From: Candidatus Micrarchaeota archaeon
Lineage (GTDB): Archaea; Micrarchaeota; Micrarchaeia; Anstonellales; Bilamarchaeaceae
Assembly (NCBI GenBank): GCA_038046805.1
Contig: JBBSVO010000004.1
Span: 64,001-128,000, forward strand
Length of the DNA: 64,000 bases
Reading direction: 5' to 3'
Both the position numbers and the translations under genes were made by a program. This document shows, piece by piece, positions 18,320 through 51,879 of the stretch. Each line of letters begins with the position of its first letter. Within the stretch, counting starts at the first letter, position 1. Below the pieces are notes generated by a model. That model worked only from the letters and a program-made list of their open reading frames with translations, was not told where the DNA came from and ran no database searches.

Positions 18320-19987
18320 CTACTCTACAATCTCAACAACTGCTTTCTGCTGTTTCTCGCTTGCTGTAACTCGTACTTTTTTATGAAAGATTAAAACTTT
18401 ACCACCATATACATGAGTAACAGTTTCTGGTCTGCCTAATCTTTCCCAATCAATGTCGACTCCAATCATGAAAATCTTTTTTGTTGTGTCCAACAGGCCT
18501 CCGAAATGGCCTTCGGGTGCATCGCGGTGGTTTGTCTTGCCAGAATACCCCGCAGTTTCAACAATTACTCGCGCATTACTTATATCCGCATATTCCAAAG
18601 GATTATCCTGAATAGATTTCGTAAGGTCTCCCACATAAACTACTACAAAATCCGCTAGATCTCTATTTAACTTTCTAAGCAGCCGTATGTCATCTTCTTT
18701 CTGAACAAATAGGATTGTATCGCTTTCGACCTCGCCGCTACCTTTCACATAACCGCTTCTGATTACCGTTTTCTCGGTTTCTGCTATTTCCTTTTCATCA
18801 TTCAGTTGTTTTTGATCTGCATCTGCTATTTGTAAAATCGCTACGTGAATTTGCCCCTCATTTTCCACTATGGCAAATTCAACATACTGTGGTTTTCCAG
18901 TCAATTGTTCCAACTTTTTCAATTTGACAAACAACCAATCAAGTTTGTTAAATGCAACTGTACCAAGTGCAATAGTAACATCATCAAAGTCTTTTTTAGT
19001 GACATATAAAAATTTCCCATCGGATAAATAATCAGTGAGTTTTCTGTAATGCAAACCGGCGCTTAAGCGCTCTTCTTCATCGTCTTGGATTTGAGATGGT
19101 GTGCGTTTGTCGCTTTCTTTTACTTTTATGCCATTTCCTTTCACCGCAGTGGTTGGTAAACCGGCTGCAAAAACGACATGACCTCCAGTATTATGAGAAG
19201 TATATCCAAAGCCGCCATATTTGGGTCCGAAACGAATTATGCCTTCACTATCGGTGTGTTTTTTGAATCTCTGCCCGAAAACAGGTTCGATGATAACTGC
19301 AACTCCACCTAGCAATCCAAGATCTTTTCTAAATACAATTGCCGATTCAGAAAACTCACTTATCATAACTGCTTTGATGGCCTTTACTAGGCCATCTAGA
19401 GTTTTAACTTCATTATTAAGGTTGATACAAAATTCGCTATCATAAATTCCTGTTCCCCTGCAATCACCATGTGCTGATGATCTTACCGCTAACGGAATTC
19501 CCCTAAAGTCCTTGTGAATCTGTTTCACAAGCCTCCGTAATACTTTCATTTCAGCTTCTTCGAACTGCCCCCCCCCGACTATCTTTTGGAGTTCTTCAGA
19601 AGAAGCTCCCCTTGTCAAAGCAGCGTTTAACCCGCATCGTTCTCTGAATGCATCAAAGAAACCCATTGCAAGAACAGTTCGTGGATTAACATCAAAACCA
19701 GCGCGTTCAATCGCCCATGTTTTTCGCATGAGCTCTTCAGCCTTGGCGCCAATAGAACCAGAACCAATGATCGTCCAGAACTTTTCAGTTAAAACAGAAA
19801 GCTGAGTTTCCCTAGCCTTAAGCAGATTAGCAACACATTGCCTGCCATTTGCTAAGGCAGTATCTGAAACGAGTGTCTGTGCCACGTAATAATAGTGCAA
19901 CCATTGGTTTTTAAAGTTACTTTTTGCGTAGAAATATGGTGACCTAAATTTTGAAATTTGCAAAACTATAAATACACCCTTATGCAA
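18320..19987 (-). CDS. PEP-synthase/PPDK N-terminal (ATP-grasp) domain protein; true start probably GTG near 19885
   Basis: PLAVRSSAHGD..GTGIYDS, VAVIIEPVFG, PQYVEFAI...ILQI. Confidence 0.7.
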   Translation of the reverse strand: MHKGVFIVLQISKFRSPYFYAKSNFKNQWLHYYYVAQTLVSDTALANGRQCVANLLKARETQLSVLTEKFWTIIGSGSIGAKAEELMRKTWAIERAGFDVNPRTVLAMGFFDAFRERCGLNAALTRGASSEELQKIVGGGQFEEAEMKVLRRLVKQIHKDFRGIPLAVRSSAHGDCRGTGIYDSEFCINLNNEVKTLDGLVKAIKAVMISEFSESAIVFRKDLGLLGGVAVIIEPVFGQRFKKHTDSEGIIRFGPKYGGFGYTSHNTGGHVVFAAGLPTTAVKGNGIKVKESDKRTPSQIQDDEEERLSAGLHYRKLTDYLSDGKFLYVTKKDFDDVTIALGTVAFNKLDWLFVKLKKLEQLTGKPQYVEFAIVENEGQIHVAILQIADADQKQLNDEKEIAETEKTVIRSGYVKGSGEVESDTILFVQKEDDIRLLRKLNRDLADFVVVYVGDLTKSIQDNPLEYADISNARVIVETAGYSGKTNHRDAPEGHFGGLLDTTKKIFMIGVDIDWERLGRPETVTHVYGGKVLIFHKKVRVTASEKQQKAVVEIVE

Positions 19988-22592: not shown

Positions 22593-23699
22593 TTACGGCA
22601 GCCATTTTTTATTGTTTATTTTTTCCTTTACATATTCTCCGACGAATGTAAGCCTTTGCCCCTGCAATGCATCCTGTTCGATCTTCTTTTTTGTTTTAAG
22701 CACAAGATTCAGATTATCCACCCAGGGTTTATGCCGGTTTATCCAAGGATAACCAAGCATTTCTTCAGCGCGCTTGATATCCACATCCTTTGCTTTAATT
22801 GTCAGTTTCTGTAAAAATTCATAGTCATTTATGTCTTGCATCGTAACTCCAAGAAATCTTGACTCCGGAACAGCAAAATCCCTTCCAAGATATGCAAGAT
22901 TCATGCTACCAGTCTTTATTGTCCAGTAAATGTACCATCCCCAAGCATCACAGTCCATAAAACAATAGACGGGCAATTTTTTGTCAGCAAGTTTTCTAAG
23001 AAGCCGTCTTGTTCCCCTAGAAGCCTGTCCTTTGGGAGTAATCAAAAGGCAATTTTCCTTTTTCCAGAACCTGTCCTCATTTAGCCTCTGCCAAAGCGCA
23101 TCCTTTTCAACTACAAGAACCCAATCCGCCTCAAGCTCTTCTATTTCCATTCCGTTATCAACATCACTTGGAATCATCCAGCCACTTCTTCCCTGTTTTT
23201 CGCAGTTGATTACGGTTTCGTCGCCTGCGAATTTGTCCCGGATTTTTAACGCACCTGCAACAACACCTTTACGGTCTGTTGTAAGATGAAGATCTTCCCT
23301 CATAACACCCATTGCCACTTCAAGGTCCTCTATAAGAGCATTGCTTTCACTTTGCTCGCTGAAAAGGTCTTCATCCAAATCCTCACCAAGAGAGAATTTA
23401 AGCTGGTAAAAAAGGCCTCTGATGCTCGTATGAAGCTCTTCTTTGATGAATCGTTTTGTCTTTGCCGCGATTGCCACAGTTTGCATGAATGTTCTTGCCT
23501 GAGATACACTCAGAAACTTACGCAATTCCTTCTTTTCCCCAAGCCTCAGGCAACCGATGCCATCATCATAAATCGTGTTGCTCTTGGTTCTAAGTGGAGT
23601 TTCAAATGTCGGGCCTTCACCACCTTCAACTTCTTTCAGCATTTTCTTTCCAAGATCAGTCATTTTCTTTTCCGCATGTTTATCGCTCATAAATATCAC
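22593..23699 (-). CDS. top6A: DNA topoisomerase VI subunit A
   Basis: SIRGLFYQLK (catalytic Tyr), VEKDA, KGQASRGTR, DCDAWG. Confidence 0.96.
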   Translation of the reverse strand: MIFMSDKHAEKKMTDLGKKMLKEVEGGEGPTFETPLRTKSNTIYDDGIGCLRLGEKKELRKFLSVSQARTFMQTVAIAAKTKRFIKEELHTSIRGLFYQLKFSLGEDLDEDLFSEQSESNALIEDLEVAMGVMREDLHLTTDRKGVVAGALKIRDKFAGDETVINCEKQGRSGWMIPSDVDNGMEIEELEADWVLVVEKDALWQRLNEDRFWKKENCLLITPKGQASRGTRRLLRKLADKKLPVYCFMDCDAWGWYIYWTIKTGSMNLAYLGRDFAVPESRFLGVTMQDINDYEFLQKLTIKAKDVDIKRAEEMLGYPWINRHKPWVDNLNLVLKTKKKIEQDALQGQRLTFVGEYVKEKINNKKWLP

Positions 23700-23714
23700 C
23701 CTGAGGTACAGCCT

Positions 23715-25355
23715 CTATTCGTTCTCATCATTTCCATTACCGTTTTCGTGTTTTCCGTTTTCTGATTCCGAACTATTTCCTTCGGGTTTTCCTTCTCCGT
23801 TTTCCTCTGCTTCTAATATGGCATATTTTTCCTCAACCAGCTTTAGCAGTTTTTGCCTAAGTGAGTCCTTTGCTTTTGAATCAGAAAGAGATGCAAGATC
23901 CCCGCTTAATTGTTCTACGTATCTTAAGATTGCTTTTCGCTTACTTTCGATTTCATGCGCCTTTCGCTTTCCGCTTATGTAACGTTGTACTCCACGTGCG
24001 GCTTCCATCACTGCATTTTTTATTTCATCAAAAACATCTTCCTCTGTTGAAACCGCTTGCTTGCCTGCCCCGGTATATGGAACATGAACGCTGACAAAAT
24101 TAACCAGCACTACAACCGGCTCTTCCTCAAAATTCTTCAAACCATAGCGGCTCCATTCCACGCTTTTGATAGATTCAGTAATTGCGCAGCCGCCTGCATC
24201 AAACAACAATGGAACGCGATTCGCGAATCGCATCATGTCCCCTTTTTTTCCTGCATGGGCAATTCCGCCTCCGTATGCAATTGCGGCTTCCACCATAAAT
24301 GGAACCCCGCCACGATATATTTTAGGAGAACGTTCAGTTACCGAGATAATTTCCGGGGTGAAAATATTGTTGAACGATTTTTCTATCTGTTCTTTTCCGA
24401 TTGGAACAATGGAATCGGTTTCTGGAGCGATCCATTTCACTTTTTTAAAGCTCTGCACGATTTTCTCCGCGTCCTCCCAGGACATATCAGACGGATCTTT
24501 GTCAAAATCAACATCAGGTACAAGTGTTCTGAGCTCAGATACCTTGTTTGCACTCACGCGTGCCAATGAGTTTTGGAGAAATGCTGAAATTTTTCTGTTT
24601 TCTTTCTGAGCATGCGCTACGTCAAGAAGGTCATGCGCACTTATTCCGAGCGGATGAGGCTGAATTTCCCTTGGCCTTTTTGGATTGCTTTCAATAACAC
24701 GCGGAAAGGAAGAACTTTCTCCGTTCGGCTCTGTAATTGAAATGGAAGCATGCGGATTTGCCAACGCGGTGCGACGCAGATATTCATAAACGCCCTGTTC
24801 GCTTCTTTTGTATTCAACGTCCTTGAATTCCGCTTCGTATGTAAGGCCGGTTTTGCCATCCGGATTGTCATCCTCGACAAGATTAAGGAGTTCGGCGCGA
24901 TTTGTTTTGAGATCAAGACTGAGTTCGCAGCTTAATTTTTTATTTTTATAACTGGAGATGATACGCGGATGTTTGCCAGTTGTGAGCAGGGAATACATAC
25001 TGACTCCGGAGATTCCGATACCTTGTTGCCCTCTTTGCTGGACGTAACGATGAAATTTTGTGCCGGCAAGCATTTGGCCAAGCGCTTTTCCAAGATATTG
25101 TTTTGGAATTCCAGGCCCGTTATCTTCTACATGTACAAGAAAATGAAATTCACCTAGTTCACGTATCGCGACTTTTAGCTCTGGAAGAATTCCTGCTTCC
25201 TCACAAGCATCAAGCGAATTGCTTACTGCTTCGTGAATAATCGTGGTCATGCTCTTTGTTTTTCCGCTAAAGCCAAGCATCTGGCGGTTCTTTTTGAAAA
25301 ATTCCGCAACCGAATGCTCCTGAAAATGTGAGAACGCATCTTTTCCTTCTGCCAT
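23715..25355 (-). CDS. top6B: DNA topoisomerase VI subunit B
   Basis: SVAEFFKKNRQMLGF, EAVSNSLDA, DNGPGI, RGQQGIG, RFANRVPLL. Confidence 0.97.
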   Translation of the reverse strand: MAEGKDAFSHFQEHSVAEFFKKNRQMLGFSGKTKSMTTIIHEAVSNSLDACEEAGILPELKVAIRELGEFHFLVHVEDNGPGIPKQYLGKALGQMLAGTKFHRYVQQRGQQGIGISGVSMYSLLTTGKHPRIISSYKNKKLSCELSLDLKTNRAELLNLVEDDNPDGKTGLTYEAEFKDVEYKRSEQGVYEYLRRTALANPHASISITEPNGESSSFPRVIESNPKRPREIQPHPLGISAHDLLDVAHAQKENRKISAFLQNSLARVSANKVSELRTLVPDVDFDKDPSDMSWEDAEKIVQSFKKVKWIAPETDSIVPIGKEQIEKSFNNIFTPEIISVTERSPKIYRGGVPFMVEAAIAYGGGIAHAGKKGDMMRFANRVPLLFDAGGCAITESIKSVEWSRYGLKNFEEEPVVVLVNFVSVHVPYTGAGKQAVSTEEDVFDEIKNAVMEAARGVQRYISGKRKAHEIESKRKAILRYVEQLSGDLASLSDSKAKDSLRQKLLKLVEEKYAILEAEENGEGKPEGNSSESENGKHENGNGNDENE

Positions 25356-25582: not shown

Positions 25583-28147
25583 TCAAGGCTTAGAAATTAG
25601 TTCCGGAAGATTCTGTGGCGGGCACCCGGATTCCTTGCATTCTTTGGTAAGCGCGTAGTATTTAGAAAGTAGCCAACGCCCGTAAACCGCTCCCTTGTTA
25701 TCCTTGGCGCAAAGCTCAACATATTCCATAAGGTCATCTGCTTTCTGGTGCTGCTTTTCCGCTATTGTGTACGGTGTTCCATCCGTGTCATGAACTATTT
25801 TGAAAACAGTAATATCGCACCCGTGCTTGTTTGATGCATATTCGTTTATGAATGCCTGCGGATTAAATCCTCCACGATACATCCCAGCGGCAAAGAAATA
25901 TGCATACCAGTTTATCAATTCCGGTTTTTTAATTTCCCCATCCTTGTTCGCAATTCCGAGCTCTTTGAGATTGTCTGTTTTCGAAAGAACCGCCTTGCCA
26001 CTGTCAACATATTTTTTCAATTTGTAGGCGCCAAGGCATGCGCTGTGAGTGACGTTGAATGGGTTATAGTCGCTGAAACATGCACTTGATATTTCCGAAG
26101 AGGAAAGACCATGTGGATTTTGCCCGTTCTCCCAAAACACAGATGGAAATTCTATGGTCTGGGTTAAACCGAATGCGCAATAGCGGACTTTGTCCGGATT
26201 TTCTATCCATAAAGAACACTGCGGCATTTTCTCGCTCAATTCAGCTTGATGATTAGTAATTTTGCTTTGGTCAAGCCCAACCGGGAAGCAACCCGTGTCA
26301 TTCACCAGCAATTGTCCGTTATCCGTTCCTTTTACTTCTTTGTAAGCCGCTGCGTCCCTGGGCACCTTGCTTGCAGCACAATAATGAAACGCGCTTTCAT
26401 GCGAGACGACTGCCCTCAGGAAAAGCGGATCAATATCAAATCGGTCAGCGAAAACATCAAGCGGCGAATAGATTGAACATTCCTTCTCATTTGCTCCCTT
26501 GTTGAAATCCAATTTAAGGTCTGGCTTTTCTTTTTCAGTTGCAACGCATGCATCGCATTTGAAAGCCGGAACCTCGTAACTGGTTATGAGCGATTCAGAT
26601 GAACCGGAAGATAATTTTTTCGCAAGATCTGAATTATCAGAAAGATACATCCAGAATCTTTGATTCTTTTCTCCAAAAGAGCATCCTGAGGCATTCTCGC
26701 TTTGGCTTGGGAAAATAGATGGCGTCATACTGCCGCTTTTGAAATAATAATCTGCAAGTCCGAACCAGTACGAAAATCTTGGCTCGGATTTGAATGGCTG
26801 CGCTTTGTAATCCGCTGGCTGGTCAAACGCGGCATCTGGATCAGAATAATCCAAAAATGCAGAATCAATTCCATCAGTATCCCCTGTTGGATTGGGATTG
26901 GCTTCAACATAATTCAAAGCATCATTATAATTAGTCGGAGCGCAACCATCGCATCTTAGCGGATTGAACATATCATAATAAGCATACGGAGCGAAACCAA
27001 TTATCCCGTTGCGAAGAAGAACCGGAAATTCGGTTCTGAACAAAAACGAATTGGCTTTGGCAGTGCTTCCTTCCGGCCAGACACACGAAGAATAATCGTG
27101 CGGAACATTTTCTTCAATCATGAAATAAGCGATAATTGACGGCTTCCGGTACGTAGTCAGGGCATATTGCGCATATCGTTTTCCCTGTTCTATAAGCCAG
27201 GCATAATTGCATTCTGTAAATGTTGTGTTGGCTAACCTTGAGTCGATTCCTATTGCAACAATGTCAGTGGATTTGTTTACCTGATCATCGCTTAACACCA
27301 GATCAAGCGCTGCAGTATCATTGAATGGCGGTGCAACTGCGATAAGACAGTTCGGGCATTCCGCCTTCATTCCGAGAATCTGATTCTGTACTTCGGAAAC
27401 GATCGCATCGTCCCGGTAATTGAAATTCATTTCCGTTGTCAATATTACCGGACCTTTATCTTTAAACTGCTGCGCGATCTTGCGTGCACGATCCGCGCTC
27501 ACCGCAGTGCTGTTGCTGTATAGAACATAAACCGGCAAAACATTTGCCCTTAGCATACATGTAGAACGATTCACTTCTGGCAAGGGATAATATTCATTTC
27601 CATTTCCTGTATCAACCGAAGGAATCCATTTCACTGCCATGCTAAGCCCGTTAAGCGAATAGGAATTTGCTTTATAGAAATCAGCAAAACCAGGACCCTG
27701 GCCTAACATGAACTGGCGAATGTTAATGTTATCGAAAGCGGCTTCGGCATCTTTATCATCCAGTGTTTTCTTTGATAATGCTTTTTTCGCGTATTCATAA
27801 TCGCATTGCTGGTCTTTGCCAGCATTCGGGTCATTTAACCCTCTAAAATAGCATTTTCCACCCTCGAGCGTAAGCGGTGGCGAGTCAATCAAACCAAAGA
27901 ACCAGCTTTCGTCAGTCTGGTTCTCACAAACCATGCAATAACAGGAGGCGTTTATTGTTTGAAAGGTGTTTTCAAGATAATCAACCTTTTGCGGAGTATA
28001 GTCATACTCATCTGCAAAGTTTTCCGTCCATTTTTCCCATTGCGCAACAAGTGCAGTGGTCAGGACTGCCACAACGATTAACAGAAGATATTTCCTTTCA
28101 ATTCCAGATAATTTGCTAAGCAACTCCGCCACCTCGCCTTCTTTCAT
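25583..28147 (-). CDS. Membrane-anchored protein with lytic transglycosylase (SLT-like) domain and probable glycoside-hydrolase-like barrel
   Basis: N-terminal TM; FDIDPLFLRAVVSHESAF, AFGLTQ, PFNVTHSACLGAYKLK; many Cys pairs. Confidence 0.75.
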   Translation of the reverse strand: MKEGEVAELLSKLSGIERKYLLLIVVAVLTTALVAQWEKWTENFADEYDYTPQKVDYLENTFQTINASCYCMVCENQTDESWFFGLIDSPPLTLEGGKCYFRGLNDPNAGKDQQCDYEYAKKALSKKTLDDKDAEAAFDNINIRQFMLGQGPGFADFYKANSYSLNGLSMAVKWIPSVDTGNGNEYYPLPEVNRSTCMLRANVLPVYVLYSNSTAVSADRARKIAQQFKDKGPVILTTEMNFNYRDDAIVSEVQNQILGMKAECPNCLIAVAPPFNDTAALDLVLSDDQVNKSTDIVAIGIDSRLANTTFTECNYAWLIEQGKRYAQYALTTYRKPSIIAYFMIEENVPHDYSSCVWPEGSTAKANSFLFRTEFPVLLRNGIIGFAPYAYYDMFNPLRCDGCAPTNYNDALNYVEANPNPTGDTDGIDSAFLDYSDPDAAFDQPADYKAQPFKSEPRFSYWFGLADYYFKSGSMTPSIFPSQSENASGCSFGEKNQRFWMYLSDNSDLAKKLSSGSSESLITSYEVPAFKCDACVATEKEKPDLKLDFNKGANEKECSIYSPLDVFADRFDIDPLFLRAVVSHESAFHYCAASKVPRDAAAYKEVKGTDNGQLLVNDTGCFPVGLDQSKITNHQAELSEKMPQCSLWIENPDKVRYCAFGLTQTIEFPSVFWENGQNPHGLSSSEISSACFSDYNPFNVTHSACLGAYKLKKYVDSGKAVLSKTDNLKELGIANKDGEIKKPELINWYAYFFAAGMYRGGFNPQAFINEYASNKHGCDITVFKIVHDTDGTPYTIAEKQHQKADDLMEYVELCAKDNKGAVYGRWLLSKYYALTKECKESGCPPQNLPELISKP

Positions 28148-31100
28148 TTCTTGAACAATGCCAACAGGAACCCCATCTCTGCATTGGCCTGCTGCATAAC
28201 GGACATGCTACCGTATCACGTGATTTATCGCTCCCATATACAAGGGATTTATGCAGTTTGACTTGACCCCTTTCATCTGTATAAACAGGGGAAAGTTTTG
28301 ACCAGATATCAGAAAGAATGCTTGATCCGGGCTGCCCTAAAACAGTGAGTTTGGCCTTTTCTGCAGTAGACATATCATCCCAGTTTGCCATTCTTCTTGC
28401 TTCTTTATATTGCATCCATATATCACGCGGGGATATAGGCGACATCGGAAGATGCCAAACAAATAGTGCCGGAGAAGTCCATGCCCAGATGGAATTCATT
28501 AGCACCCCATACCCTCCAAGCTCTTCTTCTCTTCTTTTTTGAAGTGCATAAGGAGAAACAAGGCGCTGGACATAGGGGGTATTTGCCTGAGACCAGAGCT
28601 CGCTTACTTTTTCAAAATATCCCTGGAACTGGCCGACTTCCAATCCCTGGGATAATCTTCTTGCAAGAGGGGAATATAATTTGATTGTTTCGCGCGGGTC
28701 AGTTGCAGCTTCACCCGGGTTTTGCCTTCCGCCACCTCTGCCAACGTATGAATAACCTTTCATTATCCATTGCATATCAGCAGACTGGCCCTGGAGACCG
28801 GTCAGGTATTGCCTACCTCCTAAATCTCTGCGAGCCATTTCTCCACTAGACCCAATTGATGTGTAGAATGGATTGACAAGAGAGCGGAATGCGTCTACAA
28901 CCCTAAGGCTTGTGGAACCCCAGGGCTGCATTGGGTTATATGTTTCAGCAGTCCATCGATTTGGATAACCAAACAGGTTCATCTGGAACGCACGGAATGC
29001 CAGCACAAATGGCCTGGAAGCCCTGCGGGCGATTTCCACAGTAGGATTGAAAAAGAAATTAACATTGGCCCATTCGTCGGTATCATGCAATGCGCGATAG
29101 AATCCAGGTGACCACGTGGTCGCAGGCCCAAGATGATAAAGGGTTGCAAGTGAATGCTGAAGACCATGAGATGTAGATGAAAGTGAGGGATTTCTATCAA
29201 TTCCAAAATCCCATACAAGCTGATATTTCCAGTATAAGGCAGCATTTTCATTATATGCTTCTATTGCTTTGTCAGAAAGGCCAAGGTCAAGCATCTGTTC
29301 CCGGCTCTTTCTTTTTATTGCATCGGAGAGGGCCATCCAGCTGTGCGTGTAATAAGATGAAAGAGCGACCACATCAAATGAGCCGCTTATTGACCCTCCG
29401 CCATATCCAGCCGCATAAAATGAAGTTGACTCCACCCATTGGCCGATATCACGTGCCTTGTTCACGAATTTGCGCCATGGGTCCATTACTGAAGCTGGTG
29501 CGTATTCATGCGATGCATATGGCAAAAGACTTGTCCTGATTCCATAAACCTCATGCTTTGGACGAACCGAAACCCCGGATTGTTCCCAGAAGCTCTGCCA
29601 GTTGCCAGTAGAGGTTCCGCAGTGCCAGAGGGCAGCAGCAAATAATTTCTGGCGTTCTGGATTTCCTTCTGCCCAATCCTTAAGTTCATTTAAGAGGCTG
29701 CTCCAGGAAACCTCCAGATGGTAATTTTGAGAAACTCTTACGGCTTCGTAATCCTTTTCTTGCATTAATGCGAGGTACTTATCCTTGAAACGTAATCCTT
29801 CTTCAGAATCTCCGAATTCGATGTTTATTCTTTGAGGATCAAACCGCCTCCATTTTCCCTCTGAATCCTTTAATGCAACAAATCCATTTACAATCCTGTC
29901 AAAATCGCTTAACGGCATTCCGTCAACATATGGAACATAATAACGCTCATGCGTCATAACCCAGGGATGGTCCAGAGATGCAACTGTCTTGTACATTAAC
30001 GGCTTGTCCATGAACTTTTGAAGGTCTTCCTTGTGATCAGTAAGCCGGTCTGCCCAGTCTTTTAGATTCTCGCCTGCAGTCGTTGTCCTGTCATCCAAAA
30101 TGCGTTTTCCATCCTGTTTGATTCTTTCCCCTTCCTCCTGCAATGCATTGTTCTTTGTGCGTAATCCTTCTTCATATTTCTCTTCTCCTTTTGAGATCAA
30201 TGCACCTCCAAGCATTCCCTGTGCTGCCTTGAGATAAAACTTCATTGTTTCATTTGTGTATTTGTAGGAGTTCATCCCCATAACGCCGTTAAGATGATCA
30301 TAAAGTTCGTTCATCAAAATGTCTCTGCCATACATGCGTTTGTAATTGGCACGCAGGGTTTCATCTTTCAAAAACTGGCTGGACTGCGGATCAAAAGATT
30401 TCCCTTCAAGCTTATATCTGGCTTCGATCTCATGCTGGATATTTGGCTTATATGGAAGTTTATATCCTTTTGAGAAATGAGAATCAGTCCAAAAACTCAC
30501 GGATCTTCCGGGGTCGCCAATCCAGCGGCGCTTCATATCGAATTTCCACCACCCCTGGTCAGGACCCATTTCATCCTCGCGGCCTGCCATATAAACTACT
30601 TTGCCATCCTTGTCTTTGAACATTACCTGTGCATTATGGCCTGCAAGCGCACGATAGGCTCCGATAATTTTTTCTCCATAAGACCCTGGATTGGTTATGG
30701 CTTTCCATGCATTTGCCCAAGGCTCCCCAGAGGTTAGCGGAGTTGGAGAACCGTGCTCTATTGCTATTGTTCCACCAATACCTTCTTTTTTGAGACCTGC
30801 CTTGTATACTTCGTAACCATAAAGCATTTTTTGAAGCTGCTCTGATTTTTTGCCGTCTGAAATGCCTGCTGCATCTGGATTCAGTTTAAGACCCTGCATT
30901 GCTTTTAGGCCATCTTCGGTGAGAAGCTCGCGGAGATAGCGCACGATCATTCCATTCATTGCACCTGTGAAATCTTTTAAAAATTCTTTTACCTGTGCCT
31001 TATCAGTTACTCCGCGCGTCTTCAGCCAGTCCGTGACAGTCCTTTCCAGAACAGCACCGTGTTTTTCCTTTAGGTCTGGATTAAGCGAAATCATCCTGTT

Positions 31101-33347
31101 TATTACATGAAGAGAAGATGCCATTGCGGCTTCGCGTATTCCGCCCTCTCCCCCAAGCAGTTCATGCTCAGCAGAAAAAATAAAATTATTGAGAAGGAAA
31201 GAATTCCACGCATCGCTGAATTCCAATCCGGGTTTTCCGCGATTGTAAGTCATACTGTCCCTCCCGACAGTGAGATAAAACTTATTTCTGTCTGGAACGT
31301 GGGTGGGATCATTGGTTTTGTGCTCATTTACCATGTAATCATAAAGTTGAACCGCACGAGAAGAGTCGCCATATTCCGTACTATCTGCAATTGCATTAAT
31401 GCGGTCCAATGCACGCTTTACTCCGACCCGGTCAAAATCCACGCCCATACTACTGGCAAGAGAAGATAGTTTTGTCACGCGTGTTCTAAGCCATTCATTG
31501 TGCTTTTTATCCAGCTGGTCAATATTGATAGCTGTGATTTCTTCATCCGGCATATACCTTTCTGAAAATATTGCTCTGATTTTTTTATTCAATGCCGCGA
31601 TTTCCGCACTTTTCGGATTGCCTTCTATGTTCATACGCTTTAGGATATCATTTTTATGATCAAACGCCAAATCAGTGATATCCATTTCCAAAAGCTCGAA
31701 ATTCACACCATGGTGTTCGTACATTTTTTTCATCAGATACCGCATCATGTCATAATTCAGGTCTTTGTGCAATGTACGATAAATGTTTGAAAGATTGGAA
31801 TCCAGGTTCATTATCACTCCAACACGTTGCGTTTCCTTTGAACCTGCAGTATAAAGGTCATAATATGCACGCTGGAAATATGTAACATTGGCATCAGGTG
31901 GGGCATCTACCTTCGCCGCCATCTCCCTTAGTTGCGCAGATGTTGGCTTCTTGACTGCCCTCATAACGGTTCCGACAACTGCTTTTCCATATCTTCCGGT
32001 GATTCTCATTCCCCGAACATATGATTCAATGGACGCACCTATACCTCCGCCCAGAAGTGTCATGCGCCCCATTCCCGGAAACTTCATCAGTGCCCATCCT
32101 AAAACAGGAATCTTGCCAAGTTGTGGAAAGGCATTAACAAATGCCTGACCGCCCTGAACCGGAAACCTCGCAAGCTTGTGGATTTTTCCTGTCATTCCCC
32201 ATTCATATTCGCGTTCCCCGCTCGTCAGTCTTAGCACGTTCTTGTTTGCATAACCGACTACAAAATTGTGAAGCGCCTCTGCATAGAATTTTGTGCGTTC
32301 CCCTGCTTTTTGAAGTTCTTTTGATTCGCTTTTCATCTGCAGATCTGCCATTTTCTGCATACGCTGTATAATCTGCCCAAGCACACCCTGCTCCTGTTTT
32401 GAGAAAAATAACATCTCTTTTGCATTTTTTGGAAACGCATCTTTGATTTGGGTAAGAGTATAACCGTCCTTTGCCATTTTCAGGCCAAGGGCTTCCATAA
32501 ATTTCTTTGTATCATCGTCTCTATACGTTCCAGCTAATCGCTTAACTTCATTTGTAATAGAGGATTTTCCGCTTCTTGTCAATTGCTTTGAGATAGAATC
32601 TCCTTCTGCTTTGAACACATTCTTTAGAGAAATAAGGCTCTGGTTAGTTATCTTTAGCATTCTACCATATACCAGATGTCCAAGCACCTGTCCGCTTGCA
32701 GTAAGACTCTTCGGAGTTGGAAGACTTGGCGTTGTAATATCCAAAATCGAAAGCGGGCTTCTTCCACTGAAATACATGGTTGCTAGAAGGATACCAAGAA
32801 GGACAAAACCTGTAATGCAGATGGGATATTTATCCTTCGTAGTCTGCAAAAGAGCATCCGATAATTTATGGGTGAATTTGGAAAGTATTGTAGACTCGTC
32901 ATCACAAACAGTTTTTGAGCCTGAAGAAGGAAGGTAAAACGCAGACGGAATTTGGGCATTTGCATAAATATCCTTGCAGCCATTTGGCGTACCCGAATAA
33001 AGGGTTTTTGAAATCGGACAGGACGCATAATACACAGAGTCTTTTAGATTCGATGCCGGAACGTTCTCACATATATTGCTTTTGGTAGTGGCTCCAGAGA
33101 CCTGGTCTTTTTCCAATGTAAAAAAGGTAACTTTTGAATTTGGCGGGGAGACAACCATGGATTCTCCGGTAGGGCTGTTTACATGGATGTATGCCCTTAG
33201 AATTGCAGATCCATCCGCAGACTGCTCTTGCTGAATGTCTAAAATAGTTGGATATGTAGTAGTTGAAGAAAAGGCTGCGCCTGCCAATATGAGCAGTGTC
33301 AATATTACTGCTAAACTGGGAATAATACGCATGATATATTCGCTCAA
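28116..33347 (-). CDS. Giant hypothetical membrane protein (1743 aa) with C-terminal zinc ribbon
   Basis: Signal peptide, Cys-containing ectodomain, TM near aa 177-193, CPLC...CWHC at the end. Confidence 0.8.
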   Translation of the reverse strand: MSEYIMRIIPSLAVILTLLILAGAAFSSTTTYPTILDIQQEQSADGSAILRAYIHVNSPTGESMVVSPPNSKVTFFTLEKDQVSGATTKSNICENVPASNLKDSVYYASCPISKTLYSGTPNGCKDIYANAQIPSAFYLPSSGSKTVCDDESTILSKFTHKLSDALLQTTKDKYPICITGFVLLGILLATMYFSGRSPLSILDITTPSLPTPKSLTASGQVLGHLVYGRMLKITNQSLISLKNVFKAEGDSISKQLTRSGKSSITNEVKRLAGTYRDDDTKKFMEALGLKMAKDGYTLTQIKDAFPKNAKEMLFFSKQEQGVLGQIIQRMQKMADLQMKSESKELQKAGERTKFYAEALHNFVVGYANKNVLRLTSGEREYEWGMTGKIHKLARFPVQGGQAFVNAFPQLGKIPVLGWALMKFPGMGRMTLLGGGIGASIESYVRGMRITGRYGKAVVGTVMRAVKKPTSAQLREMAAKVDAPPDANVTYFQRAYYDLYTAGSKETQRVGVIMNLDSNLSNIYRTLHKDLNYDMMRYLMKKMYEHHGVNFELLEMDITDLAFDHKNDILKRMNIEGNPKSAEIAALNKKIRAIFSERYMPDEEITAINIDQLDKKHNEWLRTRVTKLSSLASSMGVDFDRVGVKRALDRINAIADSTEYGDSSRAVQLYDYMVNEHKTNDPTHVPDRNKFYLTVGRDSMTYNRGKPGLEFSDAWNSFLLNNFIFSAEHELLGGEGGIREAAMASSLHVINRMISLNPDLKEKHGAVLERTVTDWLKTRGVTDKAQVKEFLKDFTGAMNGMIVRYLRELLTEDGLKAMQGLKLNPDAAGISDGKKSEQLQKMLYGYEVYKAGLKKEGIGGTIAIEHGSPTPLTSGEPWANAWKAITNPGSYGEKIIGAYRALAGHNAQVMFKDKDGKVVYMAGREDEMGPDQGWWKFDMKRRWIGDPGRSVSFWTDSHFSKGYKLPYKPNIQHEIEARYKLEGKSFDPQSSQFLKDETLRANYKRMYGRDILMNELYDHLNGVMGMNSYKYTNETMKFYLKAAQGMLGGALISKGEEKYEEGLRTKNNALQEEGERIKQDGKRILDDRTTTAGENLKDWADRLTDHKEDLQKFMDKPLMYKTVASLDHPWVMTHERYYVPYVDGMPLSDFDRIVNGFVALKDSEGKWRRFDPQRINIEFGDSEEGLRFKDKYLALMQEKDYEAVRVSQNYHLEVSWSSLLNELKDWAEGNPERQKLFAAALWHCGTSTGNWQSFWEQSGVSVRPKHEVYGIRTSLLPYASHEYAPASVMDPWRKFVNKARDIGQWVESTSFYAAGYGGGSISGSFDVVALSSYYTHSWMALSDAIKRKSREQMLDLGLSDKAIEAYNENAALYWKYQLVWDFGIDRNPSLSSTSHGLQHSLATLYHLGPATTWSPGFYRALHDTDEWANVNFFFNPTVEIARRASRPFVLAFRAFQMNLFGYPNRWTAETYNPMQPWGSTSLRVVDAFRSLVNPFYTSIGSSGEMARRDLGGRQYLTGLQGQSADMQWIMKGYSYVGRGGGRQNPGEAATDPRETIKLYSPLARRLSQGLEVGQFQGYFEKVSELWSQANTPYVQRLVSPYALQKRREEELGGYGVLMNSIWAWTSPALFVWHLPMSPISPRDIWMQYKEARRMANWDDMSTAEKAKLTVLGQPGSSILSDIWSKLSPVYTDERGQVKLHKSLVYGSDKSRDTVACPLCSRPMQRWGSCWHCSRNERRRGGGVA

Positions 33348-33377
33348 ATGTTATTTATAAAGCTTATACTCAACCAA

Positions 33378-33983
33378 CTAGGTCGCACGTATCCAATCCT
33401 CCTCAAAAATTCTCATGAATTCCACGACTTCCGGACCGGTGAAAACGACTGAGGCCTCGCGGTTTACCCTTAGGGCATTTTTGCTCAGGTTATGGGAGCC
33501 TACCAGAACCTTTGTTCCATCGATTATCATGAATTTGGAATGAGTGAGCTTGAATTCTTCGGATGCCCAATGAACCGCTATGCCTGCTTGTGAAAGAGCG
33601 GCAAATGTTTCCTCATTCTGCTTTCCTGCAATGCGCTTTTCCATTATTACCCGCACTGCTACTCCACGGTTCTTTGCCTTGATGAGTGCTGAAACAATTT
33701 CATCAGATGAAAAAGTGTAGATTTCGATATCAATCGATTTTGTGGCGCTATTAATAAGGGCGAGAATGTCGTCTTCGGCATCCGGGGAAAAAAGAGCGGA
33801 GATTGTTACCGGAACCGAAGCAAATGACGTGGAACCGGAACCCTCGAGCGAGTTGGCGAGCGGAAAAACAAGAATTAAAATTAGGAAAAGGAGTGCCGCA
33901 ACGATGAAGCCAGCTGCGAAAAACAACAACTGCCTACCCTGCGTCTTCTGCTCCTGCGCTGTCTGCTCTCTGTCCATATTCAT
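33378..33983 (-). CDS. Phospholipase D family protein (single HKD, Nuc/PLD6-like), membrane anchored
   Basis: HSKFMIID...GSHNLS...NRE; N-terminal TM. Confidence 0.9.
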   Translation of the reverse strand: MNMDREQTAQEQKTQGRQLLFFAAGFIVAALLFLILILVFPLANSLEGSGSTSFASVPVTISALFSPDAEDDILALINSATKSIDIEIYTFSSDEIVSALIKAKNRGVAVRVIMEKRIAGKQNEETFAALSQAGIAVHWASEEFKLTHSKFMIIDGTKVLVGSHNLSKNALRVNREASVVFTGPEVVEFMRIFEEDWIRAT

Positions 33984-36900
33984 CCAACCGTTTTACCTCG
34001 ATTTCGTTCTCCTTTATTTTCTCGACTGCCTGCAAGAGGGCGATTGCCGTCCTTACATTAGTTATACATGGAATTCCTTTTTCAATACTTGCCCTTCGGA
34101 TTTTGAATCCATCTGTGTTGAACGCGCCTCCGCGTTGCGGAGTATTTATGACAAGTGAGATTTTTCCGCCATCAATTACATCCAGGACCGTAGTTCCGGA
34201 ATTAGTATTGAACTCATTTTTGGAATCAGGATTAGCGCTTATTTTATCGACAACGACTGCATCCTGAAGATATGCCGCAGTTCCAGGAGTAGCAAATATC
34301 ATAAACCCTGCATTTTTCAAAAGTCTTCCGAGCATTGGTGCATATTGCTTGTCCTCCTTGCGCAGGCTCAGGAGAACCGCGGACGACTCGCGTTTTTCTG
34401 GCAGGGAAAGACCGCTTGAAAGAAGTGCCTTCACATACGCCTCGTCAAAAGATTCGGAAATTCCCATTGTTTCGCCAGTGCTTTTCATTTCAGGTCCAAG
34501 AGCAATATCCGCTCCTTTTATTTTCAGGAACGGAAAAACAACCCCTTTGACAGAAAAAGAATTATGAACCCGTTTTTCTTTCTGCTTTTCCAGTGCTTCT
34601 GGGTTTAGTTTTTCCCCAAGCAAAACCCGTGTCGCGAGTTTTGCAAGCGGGATTCCAATTGCCTTACTTAGAAACGGAACGGTTCTGCTTGCGCGGGGAT
34701 TTGCCTCAAGAATGTAGATTATTTCATCTTTTACTGCAAATTGGATATTGATAAGACCGATTGTACCAAGTGCAAGAGCCAATTTCCTGGTGTAATCTTC
34801 CAGAGCTGAAATAGTTTTCGCATCCAGATTCTGTGATGGCAGAACAATATTTGCATCTCCTGAATGCACGCCCGCGAATTCGATGTGCTCCATTATGCCG
34901 CCTATGAAAACATTTTTTCCATCACAAACTGCGTCCACCTCGCATTCAAATGCATTTTCAAGATATTTGTCTATCAACACAGGCTTGTTCTCGCTTACAT
35001 CAACTGCTTCGTCAATGAAGGAACGCATACCATCTTCAGTATAAACAATCCGCATCCCCCTGCCTGCGATTACATAGCTTGGGCGGACTACAACCGGATA
35101 ACCAATTCTTGCTGCGACACTTAAGGCACCTTCTGCGCTTGTGGCAGTTCCGTTTGCTGGCTGGGAAATTCCGAGTTCGTTCGCAAGCTGGCGGAATTTT
35201 TCCCGATCTTCCGCGACATCTATTCCTTCGAGCTGTGTTCCGAAAATCCTGATTCCCGCATTGTGAAGTTTTTCCGCGAGATTGATGCTGGTCTGGCCGC
35301 CGAATTGAAGAATCACGCCCTCTGCACCCTCGTTTTCAACGATATTGAGCACGTCCTCGAAAGTAAGCGGCTCAAAATAAAGCCGGTCGCTCGTATCAAA
35401 ATCAGTGCTGACCGTTTCGGGATTATTGTTTACCATTATGCTCCTGAATCCCATTTCCTTTAATGCAAATGCTGCATGCGAACAGCAATAATCAAATTCA
35501 ATTCCCTGCCCGATACGAATTGGGCCAGAACCGATTACAACGATTTTGCGGCCATCCATTTGACGGGCTTCGTTCTCATCCTCGTAAGTTGAATAGTAAT
35601 AAGGAGTTATTGCCTCGAATTCTCCGGCGCAGCTGTCAACTATTTTATATGTTGGGAGGATTCCGAGCGATTTTCTTCTTACTCTTATTTCAGGTTCGCT
35701 GCTTCCGATTAATTTTGATATTTGTAAATCCGAAAAACCAGATTGCTTTGATTCCAGCAACAGCTCACGCGACACACTCCCAGGGCTAAAGCCCTGGGCT
35801 TCTGACGTTGCGGCTTTAGGCGGAAAGCCGGTTGGAGAAGAAAAAACGAAGCCTGCGGGTGCGCTTCCTCCAATGTTTAAAGACAAAGGCTTCCGCGCAC
35901 CCTGGGAGTGTGAAAGAGGTTTTGATTCTGCAATGCGCAGCCTTTCTTCCATATCAACGATATATTTTATCCGTTCAAGAAACCAGGGATTGATTTTTGT
36001 TATGGAATTCAGTTCGTCAATGCTTTTTCCTTTCCTAAACCATTCAAATATTGCAAAAAGACGAAGGTCGGTGGGGGGCATGAGATGCTTAGACAAATCA
36101 ATATCCTTTGGCAATTTTACTTCGAGACTCCGGATCGCCTTCATGAGCGCTTCTTCGAACGTTCTTCCGATGGCCATTGCTTCTCCCGTGCTTTTCATTT
36201 GTGTTCCTATGGTTCTTTCAGCATTTACAAATTTTTCAAAAGGCCATTTTGGGATTTTCAGAACGCAATAATCAAGCGCAGGCTCAAATGCAGCAGTAGT
36301 TCCGGTTATTGCATTTTTCAGTTCTGGAAGAGAACTACCAAGAGCAATTTTTGCAGCAACCCTGGCGATTGGATATCCTGTTGCCTTTGATGCAAGGGCA
36401 GAAGAACGGGAAAGCCGTGGGTTGATTTCAATTACGGCAAAGTCCCCGGTTTGCTGGTTAAGAGAGAATTGGACATTGCATCCGCCGACTATTCCAATTG
36501 CGCGAACGATTTTCAATGCGGCATTCCTGAGCATCTGGTGGTCACGGTCGCTTAATGTTTGGGATGGAGCAACAACAATCGATTCACCTGTGTGTACCCC
36601 CATCGGATCGAAATTTTCCATATTACAGATGATAATCGCATTATCATAAGCATCCCGGAGAACCTCATATTCAAATTCACCCCAGCCTGCCACAGATTTT
36701 TCAACAAGAACCTCGTGGGTTGCGCTCAGGCGAAAGCCGGCATCAAGAAACTTTTTCAGCTCGTCCTTGTCATGTGCTACCCCGCCACCTGTTCCGCCAA
36801 GCGTGAATGCAGGACGCAGAATGACTGGATAACCAATACTTTCAGCGAATGAATATGCTTCCAGGTAATCTTTTGCTGCAATTCCAGGAAGAATTGGAAT

Positions 36901-37353
36901 TCCGATTCTTTTCATAACTTCGTTGAATTTTTCCCGACTTTCTGCGTTTTCTATGGATTCAAGACTTGTTCCTATAACAGCGACTCCATTTCGCTGAAGA
37001 ATCCCCTTTCTGCCTAACTCTACCGCAAGGTTAAGGCCAGTCTGACCTCCCATTGTCGGTAGAATGGCGTCTGGTCGCTCGCGTTCGATTATTTTTTCCA
37101 GAAATTCCGGTGTAAGCGGTTCAATATAAACAATATCCGCGATATCATAATCAGTCTGGATGGTTGCTGGATTGGAATTAACAAGAACCACTTTGACCCC
37201 TTCTTCACGGAGGGAGCGGCATGCCTGTGCGCCAGAATAATCGAATTCTGCAGATTGACCTATGACGATCGGGCCAGAACCGATAACGAGAACCTTGGAT
37301 GGTTTCGCGTTCTCAGTCTTGCGTCTTGATGGGTTATGAGACATGCTGAACAC
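33934..37353 (-). CDS. carB: Carbamoyl-phosphate synthase large subunit with a ~47-aa in-frame insertion
   Basis: GSGPIVIGQSAEFDY, GVHTGES, EINPRLSRSSALASKATG, duplicated second half, MGS domain. Confidence 0.97.
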   Translation of the reverse strand: MFSMSHNPSRRKTENAKPSKVLVIGSGPIVIGQSAEFDYSGAQACRSLREEGVKVVLVNSNPATIQTDYDIADIVYIEPLTPEFLEKIIERERPDAILPTMGGQTGLNLAVELGRKGILQRNGVAVIGTSLESIENAESREKFNEVMKRIGIPILPGIAAKDYLEAYSFAESIGYPVILRPAFTLGGTGGGVAHDKDELKKFLDAGFRLSATHEVLVEKSVAGWGEFEYEVLRDAYDNAIIICNMENFDPMGVHTGESIVVAPSQTLSDRDHQMLRNAALKIVRAIGIVGGCNVQFSLNQQTGDFAVIEINPRLSRSSALASKATGYPIARVAAKIALGSSLPELKNAITGTTAAFEPALDYCVLKIPKWPFEKFVNAERTIGTQMKSTGEAMAIGRTFEEALMKAIRSLEVKLPKDIDLSKHLMPPTDLRLFAIFEWFRKGKSIDELNSITKINPWFLERIKYIVDMEERLRIAESKPLSHSQGARKPLSLNIGGSAPAGFVFSSPTGFPPKAATSEAQGFSPGSVSRELLLESKQSGFSDLQISKLIGSSEPEIRVRRKSLGILPTYKIVDSCAGEFEAITPYYYSTYEDENEARQMDGRKIVVIGSGPIRIGQGIEFDYCCSHAAFALKEMGFRSIMVNNNPETVSTDFDTSDRLYFEPLTFEDVLNIVENEGAEGVILQFGGQTSINLAEKLHNAGIRIFGTQLEGIDVAEDREKFRQLANELGISQPANGTATSAEGALSVAARIGYPVVVRPSYVIAGRGMRIVYTEDGMRSFIDEAVDVSENKPVLIDKYLENAFECEVDAVCDGKNVFIGGIMEHIEFAGVHSGDANIVLPSQNLDAKTISALEDYTRKLALALGTIGLINIQFAVKDEIIYILEANPRASRTVPFLSKAIGIPLAKLATRVLLGEKLNPEALEKQKEKRVHNSFSVKGVVFPFLKIKGADIALGPEMKSTGETMGISESFDEAYVKALLSSGLSLPEKRESSAVLLSLRKEDKQYAPMLGRLLKNAGFMIFATPGTAAYLQDAVVVDKISANPDSKNEFNTNSGTTVLDVIDGGKISLVINTPQRGGAFNTDGFKIRRASIEKGIPCITNVRTAIALLQAVEKIKENEIEVKRLDEYGQRADSAGAEDAG
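35771..35912 (-). mobile_element. IS200/IS605-type non-autonomous palindromic element inside carB
   Basis: 13-bp inverted repeats CACACTCCCAGGG (35773-35785 and 35900-35912); hairpin GAAGCCCAGGGCTTTAGCCCTGGGAG. Confidence 0.8.
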
Positions 37354-51459: not shown

Positions 51460-51879
51460 TCAGCACGTCGGTATTCCTGTTCCGGTATTCTTAAGCAGTA
51501 CTTCCAATACAAACGGCACCAACAAGTAGATTAAAGCCGCGATTATCGCGCCATTGAACATTGATGTTGCCCATACTGAAGCCCGTGCACGTGTTTCCGC
51601 ACCCATGACCTGCCCGACCGCGTAAACCAGAGAAGCAGATACAACCATGAACATCATGCCGACTGCAAGGGAATTCTTGACAAGTTGGCAAAGCTGGTAA
51701 AGGGCATCGTAGATTTCACCGCCCTGACCGGTGAAGCCACTTGTACCCCCTGAACTACCAGTTCCTCCACTGCCACCGGGGTTTGTACCAAAACCCCCTG
51801 AACCACCGCCAGCTCCTGGTGCGTAGAGAACAAGCGGGAGAACGAATATTATGAATACTAGCAAACTTAATTTTTTCAT
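51460..51879 (-). CDS. Pilin-like (TrbC/VirB2-like) membrane protein
   Basis: Signal peptide, Gly-rich linker, two TM helices around GQVMGAETRARASVWA. Confidence 0.65.
   Translation of the reverse strand: MKKLSLLVFIIFVLPLVLYAPGAGGGSGGFGTNPGGSGGTGSSGGTSGFTGQGGEIYDALYQLCQLVKNSLAVGMMFMVVSASLVYAVGQVMGAETRARASVWATSMFNGAIIAALIYLLVPFVLEVLLKNTGTGIPTC

Follow-up and report, generated by a model that had tools for sequence, protein, structure and literature searches.

Within a 64,000-nucleotide stretch of DNA from a Candidatus Micrarchaeota archaeon (GCA_038046805.1, contig JBBSVO010000004.1, positions 64,001 to 128,000; hereafter the window), three adjacent genes on the minus strand encode a phospholipase D (PLD)-family enzyme, a giant membrane protein (protein B) and a Cys-rich protein with a lytic transglycosylase-like domain (protein A). 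B and A constitute a conserved unit, with the PLD probably a syntenic neighbour, and the pair is best read as a VirB1-like wall hydrolase (A) and the giant scaffold (B) of a type IV secretion system (T4SS) variant, whose substrate, physical link and cargo we infer. To the full proposal, namely that a chromosomal, T4SS-like contact machine aimed at peptidoglycan-bearing bacteria has this pair as its wall-breaching part, we attach roughly even confidence. A sequence-only reading of the window had suggested a dedicated apparatus of all three genes acting on a partner: the B-A pair, the intact soluble lytic transglycosylase (SLT) motifs and the partner's peptidoglycan as target are retained here, while the three-gene apparatus is not. 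That reading contained neither the barrel domain of A nor the link to six-paralog membrane arrays, pilins and a VirB4-like ATPase elsewhere in the genome.

The B-A pair and its putative promoter

The window belongs to contig C4 of a 1.2-Mb genome (86% complete), and the habitat-labelled sequencing runs containing its DNA are groundwater or aquifer metagenomes. All three co-oriented open reading frames (ORFs) were confirmed in position and strand, including the 30-bp gap between PLD and B and the 32-bp overlap between B and A as called; no indels were seen against the contigs of three DNA runs, each from a different other study, where these cover the stretch. One contig of run X7 carries 16 substitutions at 33352-33450, clustered at the 3' end of the PLD gene and in the PLD-B gap. 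The remainder of this 3.4-kb contig is free of substitutions, and the cluster may mark a recombination tract.

The neighbourhood was investigated in 61 genomes of the order, the source genome included, from which 60 stretches around matches were fetched; with the window, 55 contain B. Matches were found in 58/61 genomes for B, in 50/61 for A and in 44/61 for PLD. In 47 of the 53 loci that contain the whole 3' end of B, the next gene is A, so that the conservation the sequence-only reading had proposed to check was borne out for this pair. The six exceptions are genomes in which A lies elsewhere (G007, G009, G025), in which the contig ends 274 and 716 bp further on (G046 and G048), or in which an adjacent match to A is present, the ORF of which was not called by the filter (G057). 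A homolog search by word index yielded no more than 9 proteins.

The ORF caller starts B at a TTG (28116-33347, 1743 aa), but the most likely start is Met6 (ATG at 33332), where the ESM Atlas record also begins, giving a protein of 1738 aa (28116..33332, minus strand). With this start the gap to PLD is 45 bp and contains an archaeal TATA box, TTTATAAA (33354..33361, minus strand), which ends 21 nt before Met6. A TATA-like word is found 24-36 nt before the start in 38/51 B homologs, PLD-adjacent ones among them. In the source genome the same word precedes 10/160 tightly packed co-oriented genes and 120/242 genes with an upstream neighbour on the opposite strand. The box likely acts as a leaderless promoter for B-A. 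Together with the linkage counts it argues for B-A being the unit. Before A, a TATA-like word occurs in 16/49 homologs, the starts of which are uncertain, and no interpretation is drawn. A scan for sigma-70 promoters and terminators, which does not cover archaeal promoters, gave results at chance level. Contigs of one metatranscriptome run thinly cover 24/30 bins, including the PLD-B junction, which is not evidence of expression or co-transcription.

Protein A and its predicted substrate

Protein A (25583..28147, minus strand) has 854 aa with 26 Cys and consists of an N-terminal hydrophobic helix, a Cys-rich mini-domain, a GH-A-like (beta/alpha)8 barrel and an insertion-rich SLT/lysozyme-like domain. 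Its relatives are lipoproteins by signal, the lipobox Cys being present in 45/46 aligned proteins; the window protein and a relative with 79% identity lack this residue.

The SLT domain (approximately residues 555-836; 25640..26485, minus strand) carries DPxxxRAxxxxES with the putative catalytic Glu584 (26396-26398), GLTQ (660-663), NPF (695-697) and Tyr757, separated by Cys-rich insertions. Glu of the Glu584-Ser585 (E-S) motif is present in 37/46 aligned proteins, in all 28 complete proteins of the source family (f1) and in 124 of the 150 best library representatives. In the GLTQ segment, which we take to be the GLMQ motif of family-1 lytic transglycosylases, Gly is kept in 38/46 and Gln in 34/46. 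The region of Tyr757 (35/46) and Gly759 (37/46) was compared with A-Y-N-x-G, presumably a further motif of that family. Pfam SLT does not match the window protein itself; it matches 12/46 aligned homologs at E<=0.01 (best 2e-12), and it is on these matches and the motif columns that the assignment is based. A profile of A against the PDB returned five matches, all of them lytic transglycosylases and all weak (E 0.03-0.66), whereas structure searches with the whole of A were dominated by the barrel, the SLT part not having been searched separately.

The best evidence for the substrate comes from three unrelated peptidoglycan-hydrolase folds found on one scaffold. With 353 clusters at E<=0.001 out of 1.84 billion representatives, the A family is a small one; 27 of the 150 listed representatives, mostly picked for long C-terminal extensions, were scanned with Pfam together with five locus proteins. 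An M23 peptidase is fused to A in at least eight distinct homologs, one of them just below the cut-off and degenerate, and the HxxxD/HxH motifs are intact in 7/8 of these fusions; NlpC/P60 with intact catalytic Cys and His is fused in at least one homolog. M23 may have been either gained or lost several times: on a FastTree of 203 leaves, built after removal of 17 duplicate rows and weakly supported at depth, parsimony placed six changes for the eight M23 leaves. The 86%-complete source genome yielded no Mur ligase. The fusions point to the peptidoglycan of a partner, and A is predicted to cut that of a bacterial one.

The barrel (approximately residues 143-476; 26720..27721, minus strand) was recognised in an AlphaFold model of A (predicted local distance difference test, pLDDT, 80.8; predicted template modelling score, pTM, 0.83). 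Its best VIA match in the PDB is the glycoside hydrolase family GH26 structure 2bv9 (Z 18.0, root mean square deviation 3.8, 245 residues aligned), with many ties among GH5, GH53 and GH2, and Foldseek matched it to GH53 (E 7.7e-7). At the end of strand 4, the position of the clan GH-A acid/base, Glu239 (27431-27433) is kept in 38/46 aligned proteins and in 133/148 among the best library representatives; in the strand 7 region, Tyr341 is conserved in 39/46. The strand-7 nucleophile Glu of the clan, however, was found in the strand-7 window of none of 66 sequences in one set and none of 150 in another. The barrel is therefore not assigned to clan GH-A, and it may bind instead of cutting glycan.

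Protein B and the proposed wider machine

Protein B had been described as single-pass with a large inner part, and this description stands with one transmembrane (TM) anchor helix (residues 176-194) and an inner part of about 1550 aa; to be corrected is the overlooked second hydrophobic segment at residues 8-26, which is signal-like. The ectodomain (about 150 aa) is of a disulfide type with nearly invariant Cys93 and Cys110. Next to the anchor lies the inner juxtamembrane motif GxxPxxxxDITTPxLP (with the helix, residues 176-210; 32718..32822, minus strand), in which G195, P198, D203 and P207 are invariant in 52/52 proteins. The inner part is basic, with an isoelectric point (pI) of 8.4-9.8 in 46/46 homologs compared with a median of 6.3 for source-genome proteins of at least 500 aa, and it ends in a zinc-ribbon-like Cys cluster (C1715, C1718, C1728, C1731; 28155..28205, minus strand), the CxxC...CxxC pattern of which is found in 39/53 B ends. 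B is likely a membrane-anchored scaffold, and its named relatives are labelled Micrarchaeota, Bilamarchaeaceae and Anstonellaceae, so that the order is probably Anstonellales.

No match to B was found in Pfam or NCBIfam and no usable one in the ESM Atlas. Its C-terminal half (residues 886-1743) was modelled with a confident fold (pLDDT 74.6, pTM 0.77). Foldseek found no match to it at E<=0.001 in either the PDB or BFVD, and the highest Z given by VIA was 7.0, for a hairpin of 60 residues. These structure searches cover residues 886-1743, and their blanks do not establish a new fold. A known enzyme, a tape measure and an ejection protein were rejected as candidates for B, there being no structural match for 886-1743. 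Homology of the TM motif to the pilins (hhalign 0.7%) or to the array proteins (0.1%) was rejected as well; the comparison of pilin and array N-terminus (16%) is a hint only.

The link to a larger machine comes from other families. In 11/55 loci of the order, representing five of these families, the start of B lies at most 3.3 kb from an array of polytopic membrane paralogs, and in family f21 array, B and A are contiguous on one strand in 5/5 fetched genomes. The source genome itself encodes 13 such paralogs, i.e. two arrays of six on contig C2 and a single one on C6. The second array is followed by A' and B', paralogs of A and B (G000:C2:152758-169318, plus strand; A' with 1221 aa and 49 Cys, B' with at least 1726 aa and cut by the contig end). 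A' is a barrel paralog of A (hhalign 96.7%) in which the barrel Glu is replaced, and it was missed by the hidden Markov model of A. The only part that B' detectably shares with B is the TM motif (hhalign 95.8%, E 7.6e-9).

The start of C6 (G000:C6:224-4263, plus strand) encodes the single paralog, then a small membrane protein and then a VirB4/CedB-like ATPase (G000:C6:2091-3533), which matches AAA_10 and DUF87 above the cut-off; its best NCBIfam matches, CedB (E 1e-32) and CD1110 VirB4 (E 4e-27), are both below it. The end of C2 and the start of C6 may join. In relatives, a VirB2-like pilin gene precedes the single paralog, and members of the array family lie between pilin and VirB4; G137 carries two pilins, six paralogs, two small TM proteins, VirB4, a giant Cys-rich protein and a B-like protein on one strand. 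TrbC/T4SS_pilin was matched in 6/6 tested genes of families f13 and f14, albeit weakly (E 4e-3 to 4e-5, all below the cut-off), and our own pilin profile has six matches in the source genome. The array paralogs may be VirB6-like, going by their position and topology; an Atlas neighbour cluster contains CedA1 in 23% of its members (score 0.91). The first array of the source genome lies near genes that we take, from reading their sequences, to be leuS and probable trm5. The same genes flank B-A in families f8 and f12, so that B-A has probably been relocated away from this array, as gene order suggests.

Some further observations concern this machinery. Three tandem and two single pilin-like genes of the source genome (G000:C2:108995-110192, minus strand; G000:C1:9221-9535, plus; G000:C4:135174-135875, minus) lie far from the arrays and VirB4. 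In the window, a VirB2-like pilin gene (51460-51879, minus strand; own profile, E 1.5e-10) comes immediately after the gene of a 1906-aa protein without Pfam match and with internal hydrophobic segments (51944-57664, minus strand). This protein, seen only in the source genus among five genomes searched, may be a cargo or effector of the machine that is peculiar to the genus. A VirD4/TrwB-like ATPase of 700 aa (G000:C2:39384-41486, plus strand; TrwB_AAD_bind and DUF87 above the cut-off) is unlinked to the arrays, and in G063 a VirB4-like ATPase (L140:8485-11628) contains an intein with a LAGLIDADG endonuclease. Relaxases PF03432 and PF08751 were not found in the 86%-complete genome, with positive controls, other MOB families not having been searched; PF13814 gave no match anywhere, including the controls.

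The mechanism which we propose starts from what is observed: A adjoins B behind a TATA box; in other families the pair lies next to a six-gene array or forms a line with it, and members of the array family also occur between genes for VirB2-like pilins, for a small membrane protein and for an ATPase of VirB4/CedB type; and on contigs other than that of the pair the source genome encodes two arrays, pilins, the VirB4-like ATPase and one resembling coupling proteins. The array would form a VirB6-like channel, to which B would dock via its invariant TM-proximal motif. A would be located on the outer face beside the ectodomain of B, its barrel binding or trimming glycan, and Glu584 of the SLT domain would cleave the N-acetylmuramic acid-N-acetylglucosamine backbone of the contacted cell, as in VirB1-type hydrolases. 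More speculatively, the basic, zinc-ribbon-tipped inner part of B could handle nucleic acid or other cargo at the mouth of the channel.

It should be noted that, besides the missing strand-7 Glu, a number of observations speak against this proposal. The SLT Glu is present in only 9/22 complete proteins of the rest of the order and in 2/16 of other orders, though the pair persists (nine truncated rows were left out of the counts by group), and the SLT domain as a whole is absent in three proteins of the order and in one from another order. Asn of the SLT 'YN' motif is found in only 4/46 proteins, with Arg in the window protein, and Pfam detected no peptidoglycan-binding domain in the scanned A homologs. 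An array is near B-A in 0/33 loci of the source family, the array paralogs have no TrbL, TrbL_3 or PDB sequence match and their VirB6 identity is without sequence support, and four relatives with 0.5-0.6-Mb genomes have A without detectable B.

Some of these observations would fit the same machine with A acting on archaeal glycans, i.e. binding or trimming N-glycans of its own S-layer or that of an archaeal partner to make room for the channel, the SLT domain being a repurposed relic. In favour of this it can be argued that the most conserved part of A is the barrel with its strand-4 Glu and not the SLT Glu, which is lost in 27/38 complete proteins outside the source family, that the YN Asn is not conserved, and that A' has a barrel without Glu. 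We consider such a role unlikely, since M23 and NlpC/P60 cut peptide stems and their motifs are intact in most fusions, and since A has no match in the lineage with known archaeal hosts. The latter point derives from the distribution across the phylum. The B profile matches 131/301 genomes, among them 64/64 of the source family, 0/75 of f13, 1/54 of f14 (weakly), 0/7 of f16, 0/15 of f17 and 0/5 of f20. A subset of 77 genomes, mostly of other orders, was searched for the array family and A: the former was found in 71/77 (25/25 in f13, 18/18 in f14, 6/6 in f15) and the latter in 22/77, with none in f13, f14 (together 0/43) or f15. Since the named relatives of an f13 array-family protein are Ca. 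Mancarchaeum acidiphilum and Micrarchaeaceae, f13 and f14 probably represent Micrarchaeales, to go by these sequence relatives. Ca. Micrarchaeum harzensis has a member of the Thermoplasmatales as the host on which it grows (PMC8975820), and the cultured Micrarchaeota in the cited literature grow on archaeal hosts (PMC8975820, PMC11329633). It thus appears that the hydrolase pair is missing where the hosts are archaeal, as far as one lineage and the profile queries of A and B go.

A second possibility is a stand-alone sensing or scavenging pair, in which A would free peptidoglycan fragments from debris, B would be a TM receptor with a basic, zinc-ribbon-bearing inner part acting on DNA or RNA, and the link to the arrays would be historical synteny. 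The uniformly basic inner part of B would suit such a function, as would the position of the pair in the source family, away from arrays and with a promoter-like box of its own. Both arrays, however, have a B-like and an A-like partner, and B', which is acidic (pI 5.9), keeps the TM motif alone, so that shared docking fits better than shared DNA binding; we therefore judge the sensing pair quite unlikely.

A wider version of the wall-breaching reading would make the Anstonellales and related uncultured Micrarchaeota cross-domain parasites of bacteria: a swappable SLT, M23 or NlpC/P60 hydrolase would pierce the wall, a hetero-hexameric VirB6-like channel would drain or inject the prey, B would serve as a giant nucleic-acid-binding platform of new fold, and the hydrolase-dead A'/B' copy would be directed at another kind of partner. 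This version we regard as rather doubtful.

The PLD gene and relation to known systems

The PLD-family enzyme (33378..33983, minus strand) has 201 aa, an N-terminal TM segment and a match to PF13091 (E 2e-31). It is closest to the nucleases Nuc and NucT, with Nuc (1byr) as best PDB match (E 1.9e-14), and its single HKD motif, HSKFMIIDG...GSHN, is intact; HxKxxxxD...GSxN is found in 19/19 listed homologs, the window protein included. Like Nuc of pKM101 and NucT of Helicobacter pylori it has one such motif and is exported or membrane-associated; unlike NucT it scores below the NucT cut-offs, and its nuclease identity is a prediction, as the fold is common to Nuc nucleases and Zucchini/cardiolipin hydrolase. 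For NucT, roles in transformation and in purine salvage have been put forward (PMC5714352), meaning that an ordinary role is available for such an enzyme.

PLD lies at most 2.5 kb upstream of B in 17 of the 47 loci with enough sequence (16, plus G017 from match coordinates), directly adjoins it in 6/47 and was not found in 15/36 other genomes of the source family. A divergent AAA-type ATPase gene often lies between PLD and B in relatives; with a C-terminal winged helix (e.g. L031:6250-7320), such a gene is located directly upstream of B in many source-family genomes, and it is absent at the window locus. As a control we used topoisomerase VI B and A (22593..25355, minus strand), housekeeping neighbours downstream of A on the same strand, which are found at most 6.5 kb downstream in 18/34 loci and are thus linked at least as often as PLD. 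The start of the PLD gene, in turn, shares 50 bp with the 3' end of carB, the gene of the carbamoyl-phosphate synthase large chain (33934..37353, minus strand), so that the tight packing extends into a housekeeping gene.

PLD is thus probably an unrelated neighbour of B-A. One dedicated apparatus of PLD, B and A, with PLD remodelling lipid or cutting DNA at the contact site, would draw on the membrane anchor and intact active site of PLD, on its linkage in three families (f1, f10, f11), where it precedes B, and after an array in G041, and on its closest solved relative Nuc being encoded by the conjugative plasmid pKM101 (PMC5714352, PMC8510550), but it was rejected as very unlikely in view of the linkage counts, the TATA box between PLD and B, the overlap with carB and the position of PLD on a contig other than that of every array in 5/5 genomes tested. 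Given the linkage in three families, a real role for PLD retains a small probability. The sequence-only reading would have been overturned by genes that do not co-occur or by an inactive or unrelated SLT domain: the SLT motifs are intact in A, and B and A occur together, whereas PLD is not consistently present. Elsewhere in the window, a 555-aa protein (18320-19987, minus strand) has the PPDK nucleotide-binding domain as its sole clear Pfam match.

Our literature search, outside the scope of which are most subscription journals, found no description of the B-A pair or of a T4SS in Micrarchaeota. Archaeal peptidoglycan hydrolases, M23 included, have been published (PMC12352652); the term Micrarchaeota is absent from the main text and 12/13 supplementary files of that paper, the tables of which may list genomes by accession only. 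A 21-nm barrel was imaged in the envelope of ARM-1 (PMC11329633), and a paper on Micrarchaeota genomics does not mention secretion, transglycosylase or peptidoglycan (PMC12892359). The B-A pair yields an assayable prediction, namely that the large uncultured orders contact bacteria by means of a hydrolase of VirB1 type that is linked with a T4SS variant not yet described in archaea, and it suggests which hosts to offer in enrichment cultures.

Among known systems, VirB1 homologs of monoderms and Patescibacteria are multi-domain and often contain M23 (PMC12102498). Like TraG of pIP501 and PrgK of pCF10, the VirB1-like proteins of this group, members of the A family combine SLT with a second peptidoglycan hydrolase and, in the proposed reading, are encoded with a secretion-like machine; unlike these, A comes from an archaeon in which no Mur ligase was found, belongs to a disulfide-rich lipoprotein family, has an N-terminal GH-A-like barrel and an SLT domain split by Cys-rich insertions, is paired with the giant single-pass B and, in the source family, is not near virB4. 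The Ced/Ted systems of Crenarchaeota (CedA/CedE, CedA1, CedB/CedD; PMC11868833) are chromosomal T4SS-like sets with which the proposed machine would share a VirB2-like pilin, VirB6-like membrane paralogs and a VirB4-like ATPase; compared with the description of Ced, there are here 13 paralogs, a small VirB3-like protein, the giant B and the Cys-rich A. In Woesearchaeota and Pacearchaeota, fam00969 (PMC8204110) comprises DPANN surface proteins with GH23/SLT, taken as a sign of bacterial hosts, which differ in size (mean 1947 aa, up to 3000) and for which the available text describes no barrel or partner gene; its frequency is given as 0.0 in 13 Micrarchaeota (Table S3). The nanohaloarchaeal SPEARE-type proteins (PMC10266531) also are giant single-pass DPANN proteins, proposed to be part of a type IV secretion channel, but are made up largely of Ig repeats outside the cell plus a VirB4 domain in the cytoplasm, whereas B is mostly cytoplasmic and has no match in Pfam or NCBIfam. 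While lytic transglycosylases of DPANN and archaeal M23 peptidases are already known, the B-A pair is best read as part of an undescribed archaeal T4SS variant.

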